This document shows positions 2,759-53,567 of a DNA stretch of 64,000 bases, piece after piece. This DNA is from Escherichia coli. GTDB lineage: Bacteria; Pseudomonadota; Gammaproteobacteria; Enterobacterales; Enterobacteriaceae. The position numbers and the translations under genes were made by a program. How positions within the stretch are numbered: the first letter of the stretch is position 1; every line of letters begins with the position of its first letter. The stretch is taken from the NCBI RefSeq assembly GCF_003334305.1, contig NZ_QOWS01000011.1, one strand, 5' to 3'. Below the pieces are notes generated by a model. That model was not told where the DNA came from. It searched no databases and saw nothing but the letters and a program-made list of their open reading frames with translations.

Positions 2759-2834
2759 TGGCTCCTCTGACTGGACTCGAACCAGTGACATACGGATTAA
2801 CAGTCCGCCGTTCTACCGACTGAACTACAGAGGA
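2759..2834 (-). tRNA. asnT: tRNA-Asn (GUU)
   Basis: Exact match to remembered E. coli tRNA-Asn, 76 nt with CCA end; identified as asnT by the flanking mtfA. Confidence 0.95.
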
Positions 2835-3825: not shown

Positions 3826-3915
3826 GGAGAGATGCCGGAGCGGCTGAACGGACCGGTCTCGAAAACCGGAGTAGGGGCAACTCTACCGGGGGTTCAAATC
3901 CCCCTCTCTCCGCCA
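3826..3915 (+). tRNA. serU: tRNA-Ser (CGA)
   Basis: 90-nt match to remembered E. coli tRNA-Ser with long variable arm and CCA end. Confidence 0.95.
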
Positions 3916-10775: not shown

Positions 10776-11283
10776 AGTGTATTCCTTATTGTTGCTTAGT
10801 TAGGGTAGTCACTATATTTGCGACTGAGCTGGTCGCTATTTTTAACCAGGCTGGAAAATTGAGTCAATATATCGAAAGCGGTAGTCGGCGGGTGTAAGTA
10901 TGTAATGATGATGCTGCACTGGTGTTGAATATTATTCACGCCAAATTTTCCTTATTGAGTAACGTCGTCGCAAGTGGCCTCAATGATTTTAGACCATTAT
11001 CAGAGGTACGGGGTGGCGGGGAGAGATTTAGTGCTGTGGAATATTGTGGTGCTGATGAATATTTATATCGCGGATTGGTAGAGAAAAAGCTTATTTCATG
11101 CACTATTTTTGCAAATATTTCTATATGGGAAGCGTGTTTGTTACGGATTAATTCATAAAGAAATGCATTTGGGTGTTAGCTTGAAGAGTAGCTGGTTGAT
11201 GTTATTGTGCCAGGAGGGGCAGGGTAAGGTGCTGTATCGATATGCTTCGGCAATTGCGTGTGCCGCAGATGGAGATGAAATGC

Positions 11284-11323
11284 CAATAAAAAAGCCTGAG
11301 TTCGATGAGGGACGAACTCAGGC
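11284..11323 (-). terminator. Intrinsic terminator downstream of the porin gene
   Basis: 11-bp stem GCCTGAGTTCG/CGAACTCAGGC followed by a U-run on the minus strand. Confidence 0.7.
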
Positions 11324-11366
11324 TAGTGTTAAGTTTTACAGTAACACGCCGCAGCGAGTTGGCTGA

Positions 11367-12482
11367 TTAGAACTGGTAGACGATACCAACTGCAAACTGG
11401 TCATCAGCTGCTGCGCCAGTAATGGCGGCGTCATCTTTATCCAGCATGTTGAATTTGTATGCAGTATAAACGTTCATGTTCTTATTAAAGTAGTACCAGG
11501 TACCAACTTCAATGTAGTTCACACGGTCAGCGTCAACATATCTATGTCCAGGTACCCCTTTGATATCTTTACCTTTAGAGTACACATAACCTAAGGACGG
11601 ACGCAGACCAAAGTCGAATTGATACTGAACAACCGCTTCAAAGTTCTGGGTTTCATTGATAAGTTGATCACGCATTATTGTATTGCCTTCTCGATCGGCA
11701 ACACCTGTATCAATAGAACCCGGAGTCATATTACGAGTTTCGCCGTACATTACAGCTGCGTAGACATTGTTCGCGTCATACTTTGCAGCCAATGACCACA
11801 GTTCAGCATTTGAACCGTTTCCATCGGCAACTTGATCGTTGGTGCGATCAGATTTGCTATATGCACCAACGATACCAAAACCATTGATGTTATAGTCTAC
11901 AGACAACGCATAGCCGTCACCATTTTGTTTCTTAGTGCTACGGTTGCTGTTTTTGCCTTGGTACTGAATCGCAAAATCAAGACCATCAACCAGGCCAAAG
12001 AAATCATAGTTACGGTAGGTTGCAACACCGTTGGTACGACCATTCATGAAGTTGTCAGCGGAAGCCCAGGAATCGCCACCCCATTCAACTAACATATCGG
12101 TATAAGCTGCGGCATCATAAGCAACACCGTAGTTACGGCCATAGTCAAATGATCCTAACTCGTTATATTTCAAACCGGCGAAGGTTAAACGGGTTTTTTC
12201 CTGGTTTTCACCTTCGGGCTTGCTGGCGTCGAGGTTGTATTCAAACTGACCAAAACCAGTCAGTTCGCTGGTGATTTGGGTTTCACCTTTAACACCGAAA
12301 CGAGCATAGGAGGTATCTTCGTTTTCGCTGTTATTATCATCAGTATTTGACCAGATGCGTTCGCCAACCATCTTGCCGTAGAAATCAACTTTATTGCCAT
12401 CTTTATTATAAATTTCAGCCGCATTTGCTGCGCCAGCAACTAATAACGCCGGGACCAGCATTGCCAGAACTTTTCTTTTCAT
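11367..12482 (-). CDS. yedS: Intact OmpC/OmpF-family outer-membrane porin at the yedS position
   Basis: 371-aa frame from [21 protein letters not shown] (signal peptide) to a C-terminal F; classical porin motifs; sits where K-12 has the yedS pseudogene. Confidence 0.85.
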
Positions 12483-12796
12483 TATGTATTCCCTTGTGAT
12501 TATAATCTTCATGAATATATCAATAAGTGCCGTTATCCAAAAAAAAGCACATTTGGATACTATTCTATGAAGTTCATTTTATTTTAAGGATTACATGTAA
12601 CAAATGTATTTAAAAGATTTCAAAGTGTTTCTAATATATTTAATATAATTCAGGATTATGAATTCTGAATATAAACATTCATGAAGATTATAAATGTATA
12701 TCAATAAGTTATGAGTTGAACTGAAAGATAGGGAGTATCAATGATCGTTGCGCTAAACGGCTGGTGTGATCACGCGCACATTAATGAAGGCATAAA

Positions 12797-12826
12797 AAAA
12801 AGCCGGCATCATGCCGGCCCAAAAAA
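12797..12826 (-). terminator. Strong intrinsic terminator on the minus strand in the porin-yedR spacer
   Basis: GC-rich hairpin GCCGGCATCATGCCGGC followed by eight U on the minus strand. Confidence 0.7.
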
Positions 12827-12886
12827 TATAAACAAGACGATAAAAGGCTAATAACGGAGGCATCATGACACAGAATAATAAAAAGG
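12797..12886 (-). ncRNA. rseX: Candidate small RNA (about 90 nt) ending at the terminator; position consistent with RseX
   Basis: Possible sigma70 promoter (TTCAAT, 18-nt spacer, TACAAT) about 90 nt upstream of the terminator on the minus strand; RseX placed between yedR and yedS from memory; 5' end not established. Confidence 0.4.
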
Positions 12887-21219: not shown

Positions 21220-21306
21220 AACACATCAGATTTCCTGGTGTAACGAATTTTTTAAGTGCTTCTTGCTTAAGCAAGTTTCATCCCGACCCCCTCAGGGTCG
21301 GGATTT
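21220..21306 (+). ncRNA. dsrA: DsrA small regulatory RNA
   Basis: 87-nt match to remembered DsrA, including the terminal CCCGACCCCCTCAGGGTCGGG hairpin and U-tract. Confidence 0.95.
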
Positions 21307-53264: not shown

Positions 53265-53340
<76 letters not shown>

Positions 53341-53394
53341 GTTTAAAAGACATCGGCGTCAAGCGGATGTCTGGCTGAAAGGCCTGAAGAATTT

Positions 53395-53468
53395 GGCGCG
53401 TTAACAAAGCGGTTATGTAGCGGATTGCAAATCCGTCTAGTCCGGTTCGACTCCGGAACGCGCCTCCA
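53395..53468 (+). tRNA. cysT: tRNA-Cys (GCA)
   Basis: 74-nt match to remembered tRNA-Cys. Confidence 0.95.
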
Positions 53469-53480
53469 CTTTCTTCCCGA

Positions 53481-53567
53481 GCCCGGATGGTGGAATCGGT
53501 AGACACAAGGGATTTAAAATCCCTCGGCGTTCGCGCTGTGCGGGTTCAAGTCCCGCTCCGGGTACCA
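53481..53567 (+). tRNA. leuZ: tRNA-Leu (UAA)
   Basis: 87-nt match to remembered tRNA-Leu with long variable arm. Confidence 0.95.

Follow-up and report, generated by a model that had tools for sequence, protein, structure and literature searches.

The analyzed window, a 64,000-nt stretch of an E. coli genome, carries on its minus strand at 11367-12482 a single uninterrupted porin reading frame of 371 codons plus the stop, as seen in both the ORF list and the sequence. The stop codon occupies 11367-11369 and the annotated start ATG 12480-12482, and the frame was translated without a frameshift or an internal stop. The 371-aa product has an N-terminal signal peptide and terminates in GIVYQF, and a Shine-Dalgarno sequence, AAGGGA, is located at 12490-12495, 7 nt 5' of the start codon. 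The neighbors are hchA, hprR-hprS, and msrP-hiuH on one side and rseX, drpB (=yedR), yedJ, dcm, and vsr on the other. The small RNA gene rseX lies directly upstream of the porin gene in the same direction and is considered here as context, separate from the porin gene itself. The features of the locus are as follows:

11367-12482, minus strand: porin CDS, the class Ia allele of the yedS-locus porin, with an intact frame, RefSeq protein WP_000824355.1, and matches to solved structures
12420-12482, minus strand: predicted signal peptide of 21 aa, cleaved before AEIYNK as judged by alignment to the mature N-termini of OmpF and OmpC (PDB chains)
11382-12413, minus strand: variable mature-protein "cassette", deeply different between allele classes, delimited by the identity per 100-bp window
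12036-12131, minus strand: loop L3 and constriction, residues ~118-149 with D129, E133, D137, and R149, mapped via the alignment with K-12 OmpF
11658-11720, minus strand: extended surface loop, residues ~255-275, at the position of OmpF L6 in the alignment to OmpF
11283-11324, minus strand: intrinsic terminator, located 43 nt past the stop codon and made up of a 12-bp stem and then TTTTTATTGG
12483-12794, minus strand: shared regulatory region and 5' UTR, from the cross-class comparison
12765-12780: CRP-like palindrome TGTGATCACGCGCACA, from a motif scan
12795-12884, minus strand: rseX small RNA gene with its terminator (Rfam RF01401, 99 bits)

An alternative in-frame ATG is present further upstream at 12512 and would extend the product by 10 residues to 381 aa. 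The conserved canonical porin signal peptide, together with the use of 12482 in RefSeq, supports 12482 rather than 12512 as the probable true start. A 1701-bp query covering 11100-12800 of the window was 100% identical to E. coli A7 from orangutan faeces (NZ_CP028767.1), in which RefSeq has the same 1116-nt CDS, annotated as "porin" WP_000824355.1, between hchA and drpB. In MG1655, the same slot, with the same rseX arrangement, holds the pseudogene yedS (b4496). The PGAP label at this slot in another K-12 strain, JM109, is "porin OmpC; frameshifted; internal stop", and the translation of K-12 yedS contains one amber codon and one frameshift. The initial annotation had described an intact full-length porin of 371 aa, situated between hchA and yedR where K-12 has a pseudogene, and these observations bear it out in all three respects.

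The protein matched 48 PDB sequences of solved porins, with residues 1-371 covered. The best match was OmpK35 (E = 9e-145), followed by porins of the Omp35/PhoE type (1e-130), E. coli OmpF (2e-118), and OmpC (~1e-92). The NCBIfam models for OmpF, OmpC, and PhoE matched with E-values of 1e-124 to 1e-135, and none of the named models was passed: the top-scoring OmpF model (NF007446) gave 450 bits against an equivalog cutoff of 583, and the OmpC subfamily model (NF007841) 417 bits against a cutoff of 484. An identical protein, P0001, carries PF00267 (Porin_1) and heads a cluster of 1321 members. On these matches, the assignment to the general bacterial porin family PF00267 (OmpF/OmpC/PhoE type) is far beyond chance. 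The assignment agrees with the full-length homology to characterized 16-stranded trimeric porins, and with the N-terminal signal peptide, whose predicted cleavage site follows the mature PDB chains, and the β-signal with its terminal Phe. The OmpC/OmpF-family membership, signal peptide, and C-terminal Phe that had been proposed initially were thus all recovered, the last as the end VYQF.

An AlphaFold model built from a 30-sequence alignment is an all-β barrel of moderate confidence (pLDDT 70, pTM 0.69). It superimposes on OmpK35 and OmpF with target-normalized TM scores of 0.79-0.84 (OmpK35, TM 0.77/0.84). L3, the inward-folded loop that would set its acidic residues against a basic cluster, is partly of low confidence in the model, with a pLDDT below 50 for residues 135-140. 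In the alignment with K-12 OmpF, the constriction residues K16, R42, R82, R132, D113, E117, and D121 are all conserved, and their equivalents, in the same order, are K37, R61, R98, R149, D129, E133, and D137. The L3 motif reads LVEWGGDSW, as in OmpK35, whereas OmpF and OmpC have PEFGGD.

To place the gene among the alleles of its locus, we used 5,426 complete E. coli genomes. Classes were defined from loci sampled among these genomes, and the alleles were counted by megablast at a coverage of at least 80% of the mature-coding query. The alleles at the yedS locus fell into at least four deeply divergent classes, which have their flanks in common:

Class I: Ia, 371 aa (the window), and Ib, 357 aa and 90% identical to Ia; 1624 genomes
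Class II: 352 aa, 67-68% identical to Ia; 1141 genomes
Class III: 387 aa, 62% identical to Ia; 366 genomes
Class IV (K-12/O157 type): 395-397 aa, 60% identical to Ia; 1662 genomes

Alleles at least 95% identical to that of the window were present in ~900 of the 5,426 genomes (~17%). The class III matches were all at least 99% identical to each other, and class IV is a pseudogene in K-12 and O157:H7 alike. The other ~630 genomes have other, truncated, or deleted loci, one example being XDL with its IS903B-associated deletion. In CUPS05, a frameshifted class Ia copy was seen beside a transposase remnant. Inactivated class Ia copies such as this one indicate that the gene is dispensable in some backgrounds.

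The divergence between the classes is confined by sharp limits. The signal peptide is nucleotide-identical in all E. coli allele classes examined, the first mismatches between classes appear at CDS nt 70-94, and the last 15 nt, GTCTACCAGTTCTAA, are invariant. The ~310-bp region from the rseX terminator to the ATG is 98% identical across classes, with its last ~120 bp invariant, and the terminator is near-invariant as well. On both sides of the cassette, the flanks are 97-100% identical between strains. Within class I, Ia and Ib form a mosaic with an N-terminal half of 95-100% identity and a C-terminal half of 61-85%, which points to recombination within the gene. The extended loop at residues ~255-275 is confined to the 371-aa class Ia and missing from the 357-aa class Ib; its assignment to L6 follows the alignment to OmpF and the OmpF topology, the AlphaFold model being of moderate confidence. 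In class III the eyelet is altered, with R42E, R82K, and E117V in OmpF numbering. Insertions and deletions among the alleles fall between strands. We also considered whether the variation is confined to the loops, and this was not supported: by a crude measure over five alleles, conservation was 3.64 of 5 for strand residues and 3.53 of 5 for non-strand residues, with no clear difference. This arrangement suggests that all yedS-locus alleles would use one promoter region, 5' UTR, signal peptide, and terminator, and that homologous recombination within these conserved flanks may swap the mature-protein cassette.

Outside E. coli, the porins most similar to the window protein were those of E. 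fergusonii (85% identity), Citrobacter (77%), Enterobacter (75-77%), and the K. oxytoca group (73%). In each of these, the porin gene adjoins yedJ and dcm/vsr, with drpB intervening between yedJ and the porin gene in E. fergusonii and K. oxytoca. E. marmotae contributes a member to the 90%-identity cluster of the window protein, and class IV is found at the syntenic locus of E. albertii. A neighbor-joining tree (331 columns, 200 bootstraps) was divided by a 100% split into two sides, within each of which the deeper nodes are weak. On one side, classes III and IV are placed with OmpF, OmpC, PhoE, OmpN, and an NmpC-like porin; on the other, classes I and II are found with the syntenic porins of the other genera and the OmpK35 group. 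With 100% bootstrap support, the E. fergusonii porin was joined to the window protein. Both synteny and monophyly therefore place the window allele, as far as the sequences tell, in an unnamed enterobacterial lineage of drpB/yedJ-adjacent porins, together with those of E. fergusonii, E. marmotae, Citrobacter, Enterobacter, and K. oxytoca.

Comparison with two further class Ia alleles revealed 7 synonymous and 1 non-synonymous differences from IHE3034 (dN/dS 0.04) and 9 synonymous and 3 non-synonymous differences from U14A (dN/dS 0.09). Against E. fergusonii the dN/dS was 0.07, and against Citrobacter, Enterobacter, and K. oxytoca 0.08-0.12. The window allele is under strong purifying selection, and the low dN/dS argues that the gene is used. 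The dS of the window allele was 0.5 to class Ib and 1.3-1.9 to classes II and III. Overall, the cassettes of different classes are as distant from each other as OmpF is from OmpC, with a between-class dS above 1.2. These values far exceed the expectation from flanks of 97-100% identity, so the classes would be either much older than the surrounding sequence or imported from diverged sources.

Some cassette classes also occur in E. fergusonii and E. marmotae, others in E. albertii, and the yedS locus may, at somewhat less than even odds, be a long-lived, possibly trans-species balanced polymorphism, in which a fixed expression "socket" is combined with interchangeable mature-porin cassettes. 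If phages, colicins, or host immunity maintain the polymorphism by frequency-dependent selection, this minor porin would count as a locus of surface variation, like fliC or the O-antigen cluster. Under such selection, different lineages of E. coli would harbor extra pores that differ in function, and this would bear on antibiotic entry. Among the searched papers that mention yedS, we found none describing a cassette-like polymorphism of the mature protein, and novelty cannot be claimed for it; no papers were found for the RefSeq accessions of four alleles either. Another origin was considered and rejected, namely that the alleles descend from different members of an ancestral tandem pair, of which one or the other survived; E. 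fergusonii has two adjacent porins. This was dropped because the signal peptide of the second of these porins is of a different, NmpC-like kind and its identity to the rest of the compared proteins, all E. coli allele classes among them, is only 54-65%.

Instead of an old polymorphism within Escherichia, the window allele could reflect a recent horizontal import, in which a foreign enterobacterial porin replaced the resident yedS. This would fit the sharp divergence boundaries, the Ia/Ib mosaic, and the gene GC content of 42-46%, which is lower than that of the flanking genes, as well as the fact that the closest relatives outside Escherichia, in Citrobacter, Enterobacter, and K. oxytoca, are the syntenic porins. 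However, there are no mobile-element remnants beside the gene and the flanks are core-like; no donor closer than E. fergusonii was found, and the dS to every other genus is saturated (>1.3). Moreover, the allele is widespread in E. coli and present also in E. marmotae, and the class IV lineage is likewise common to E. albertii at the same locus. We therefore regard a recent import as unlikely.

The expression of the gene was approached through its upstream region. The 200 bp at 12500-12699 have a GC content of 21.5%. Weak σ70-like hexamers were located at 12669-12642, 12662-12633, and 12603-12576, but in the σ70 scan upstream of the porin gene such matches were no commoner than in shuffled sequences, and no promoter could be assigned. 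The CRP-like palindrome at 12765-12780 was the only match in the window, and 19 of 100 shuffles gave at least one. The OmpR boxes of ompF (F1/F2) and ompC (C1), used as queries that were confirmed 21/21 in the K-12 loci, matched nothing upstream of yedS beyond the level of chance. Warner et al. (2013) reportedly described a functional YedS in a non-K-12 strain that affects carbapenem susceptibility, and reportedly also a MicF- and MarA-dependent control of YedS. In the region from -70 to +30 of the window yedS, the duplex energy of MicF pairing was no better than in shuffles (z = +1.1), while the controls worked as expected (MicF-ompF, z = -3.9; MicC-ompC, z = -3.3). Pairing of RseX and MicC with the same start region likewise gave no signal. 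The absent MicF signal may leave room for pairing elsewhere or for indirect control.

Published data on K-12 and other strains provide some further indications. The corresponding K-12 CRP-like site is listed for yedS in the table of a Footprint-seq preprint (PMC12871828), and the adjacent rseX is reported to be repressed by H-NS/StpA (PMC8313858). The K-12 yedS mRNA, labelled "yedS (ompS1)", is measurable and repressed 2.5-fold by σE induction (PMC2731931). In an STEC strain, a porin resembling YedS has been detected (PMC9731836), which would fit the expression of an allele other than that of K-12. Of 141 human sera, only 1 contained antibodies to K-12 YedS (PMC11242715). Based on the low GC content upstream and the H-NS-repressed rseX, the porin gene may be silent under laboratory conditions, and by analogy a condition-dependent H-NS-type silencing of the gene is likely.

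Taken further, the same observations could mean that the gene is cryptic, i.e., permanently silenced and without present function, like the "quiescent" porins, and intact by chance or because it was silenced recently. The extreme AT-richness upstream, the repression of the neighboring rseX, and the single positive serum among 141 would be in line with this, as would the repeated decay of the locus to pseudogenes or deletions in K-12, O157:H7, CUPS05, and XDL. On the other hand, dN/dS is 0.04-0.1 within the allele and against the orthologues of E. fergusonii, Citrobacter, Enterobacter, and K. oxytoca, the pore-lining residues are all conserved, and the sampled copies are mostly intact. Together with the measurable, σE-repressed mRNA in K-12, the porin detected in the STEC strain, and the reportedly carbapenem-relevant YedS, this makes a permanently silenced gene improbable, and we consider a functional gene with conditional expression to be the better description.

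The initial annotation had further called the gene a yedS-type porin, implying an intact form of the K-12 gene. The window and K-12 are ~100% identical over CDS nt 1-69, which cover the signal peptide and the next two codons, and ~100% identity resumes in the last 15 nt of the CDS and runs into the downstream flank. In the mature-coding part between them, the nucleotide identity per 100-bp window is 42-81%. At the protein level, the window porin is 60-61% identical to the reconstructed K-12 YedS, the same as to OmpF, and 57-59% identical to OmpC, PhoE, and OmpN. With 537 bits on NF007841, the reconstructed K-12 YedS, in contrast to the window protein, passes the OmpC subfamily cutoff of 484, and this accounts for the two PGAP names, "porin OmpC" for one allele and plain "porin" for the other. 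Intact K-12-type YedS proteins do exist in E. coli, Shigella, and E. albertii (e.g., P0121 and P0143), with 395-397 aa and an identity of 86-97% to the reconstructed K-12 YedS. The idea that the window gene is the ancestral unbroken K-12 yedS, differing mainly by the stop codon and the frameshift of K-12, thus has in its favor the common chromosomal position and orientation and the identical or nearly identical regulatory region and signal peptide, but it is very improbable and, in its strict sense, is already refuted by the protein and nucleotide identities, the NCBIfam scores of 417 and 537 bits, the 100%-bootstrap split that separates the two proteins, and the different length of the real intact K-12-type proteins. 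Consequently, the yedS-type label stands for the locus, with the same neighbors hchA and rseX-drpB-yedJ-dcm-vsr, and falls for the orthology, as the two proteins lie on opposite sides of the tree. The possibility that had been named against the label, an ompC/ompF paralogue unrelated to yedS, came true by half: the locus is the same, and the lineage is different.

Altogether, the sequence features make it very probable that the gene found in the window at the site of K-12 yedS is functional and encodes a general-diffusion porin of the classical trimeric kind, from the OmpF/OmpC/PhoE superfamily. Its most likely role would be that of a minor general-diffusion porin, conditionally expressed from the shared, probably silenced promoter region. 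The precursor would be exported by the Sec system via its 21-aa signal peptide and inserted by BAM through the C-terminal VYQF β-signal, giving a trimer of 16-stranded barrels in which the L3 loop, with its acidic residues, and the conserved basic cluster would narrow the pore. Small hydrophilic solutes, including β-lactams, could then cross the outer membrane through this pore. A relevance of the window allele to antibiotic entry is plausible by analogy, from its family and from what Warner et al. (2013) reportedly observed.

The finding is real but ordinary, in that the allele is common and an identical protein is already in RefSeq as "porin". As an annotated protein present in about one in six complete E. 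coli genomes, the intact porin adds little in itself. The cassette-like polymorphism inside an invariant expression socket is the under-described and more interesting by-product. What is called yedS in E. coli comprises at least four porin lineages on one regulatory socket and not one gene. Results on YedS concerning permeability, MicF control, antibody recognition, or phage and colicin sensitivity are therefore not transferable between strains unless the allele is checked. In addition, automatic annotation enters the alleles under two names, "porin" and "porin OmpC", and in analyses of pan-genomes or resistance genes this obscures that they are allelic.

Among the known systems, E. coli OmpF (NF007446) resembles the window porin in its fold and eyelet residues and gives the highest NCBIfam score. 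It differs in that this score, 450 bits, is below the cutoff of 583, in the identity of 60-61%, and in its locus, K-12 ompF being located between asnS and aspC, away from the gene described here. OmpK35 of Klebsiella pneumoniae and Omp35 of K. aerogenes, both OmpF orthologues, include the top structure match (E = 9e-145, TM 0.84) and have the VEWGGD motif of L3 and the constriction residues in common with the window porin. Unlike the latter, OmpK35 is encoded at the ompF locus between asnS and aspC, and it is therefore not the orthologue of the window gene. It also forms a separate clade; in the fold alignment it is 62% identical to the window porin, and the cluster named OmpK35 (P0115) gives 63%.

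OmpS1 of Salmonella enterica is an H-NS-silenced "quiescent" porin that is activated by OmpR and LeuO. Its gene is presumably located in the equivalent region near dcm-vsr-yedJ, behind a regulatory region that is long and AT-rich. In E. coli, the name OmpS1 goes with class IV, the K-12-type lineage, and not with that of the window, one E. coli class IV protein (P0139) being named "outer membrane protein S1". K-12 YedS itself (b4496; "ompS1" in E. coli annotation) occupies the same slot between hchA and rseX-drpB-yedJ-dcm-vsr and belongs to the same superfamily, and its regulatory region, 5' UTR, signal peptide, and terminator are 98-100% identical to those of the window. In contrast to the window protein, the K-12-type proteins cluster with OmpN/OmpC and pass the OmpC-subfamily cutoff. 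They also differ in loop lengths (396 aa, against 371 aa in the window) and have PEFGGD in L3 instead of VEWGGD.

The closest counterparts are the drpB/yedJ-adjacent porins of E. fergusonii, E. marmotae, Citrobacter, Enterobacter hormaechei, and the K. oxytoca group, among which we found no characterized protein. They are set apart from the window allele by species-level divergence and by its longer loop at the L6 position. They agree with it in several respects: they are syntenic, fall in the same clade with 73-85% identity, have the L3 motif VEWGGDSW and a signal peptide beginning with MKRKVLA, and show a dN/dS of ~0.1 against the window allele.

The regulatory region of the porin gene (window 12483-12794) and the part encoding the signal peptide are 98-100% identical across the allele classes, as compared between the window and the yedS-locus sequences of other genomes (L001, L003, L004, L006, and L007). 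The mature proteins of the same classes are only 60-68% identical. The final approximately 120 bp upstream of the ATG are invariant across the classes. Two elements lie further upstream:

window 12765-12780: palindromic CRP-like sequence TGTGATCACGCGCACA, lying between the terminator of rseX and the porin upstream region
window 12795-12884, minus strand: gene for the small RNA RseX, matching Rfam RF01401 at 99 bits

The palindrome is kept in all allele classes and differs in K-12 by one spacer change; a Footprint-seq preprint (PMC12871828) lists the K-12 counterpart under yedS. With regard to the start codon, an in-frame ATG at window 12512 would extend the porin ORF to 381 aa (extension, window 12483-12512). 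An E. marmotae porin belonging to the same protein cluster as the window porin is annotated as 380 aa in length, which is probably a start-site mis-call.

The porin gene is located directly downstream of rseX in the same direction, and rseX has its own terminator (window 12800-12820). The variable porin is thus adjoined by a regulator of outer-membrane protein genes. No pairing was predicted between RseX and the start region of the porin gene. The other RNA genes noted in the window were the following:

window 2762-2834, minus strand: tRNA gene
window 3826-3912, plus strand: tRNA gene
window 21220-21306, plus strand: gene for the small RNA DsrA (102 bits in Rfam)
window 53265-53564, plus strand: three clustered tRNA genes

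DsrA and the five tRNA genes are ordinary for this chromosomal region.

On the other side of the porin gene, the spacer to hchA (window 10776-11366, 590 bp, GC approximately 40%) displays a strong G-over-C skew, reaching 0.51 at 11000-11199. In some genomes a 136-aa 'hypothetical protein' is annotated in this spacer (L007:1024-1434). In E. fergusonii, two genes are inserted between hchA and the yedS-locus porin:

L015:6001-10688: second porin (369 aa) and TrkH-family gene

The signal peptide of this second porin is NmpC-like (MKKLTVAVSAVAAS...).

The locus has been inactivated independently in strains XDL (L008:3268-5002) and CUPS05 (L025:1-1351). In XDL, a class III porin is truncated by IS903B and the rseX-drpB-yedJ-dcm side is absent. 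The class Ia copy of CUPS05 carries a frameshift, with a transposase remnant at the 3' end of the gene. The neighboring cell-division gene drpB (yedR) is annotated as a pseudogene in B18271 (L005:3174-3455, internal stop) and in O157:H7 F1273 (L006:3309-3589, frameshift).

The class III allele is represented by strain 0H25:

L007:1468-2631: class III allele, 387 aa

This allele occurs in 366 genomes, all at least 99% identical. Its L3 motif is PVFGGD, and its constriction residues are non-canonical (R42E, R82K, and E117V in OmpF numbering), which suggests a pore of different charge or selectivity.
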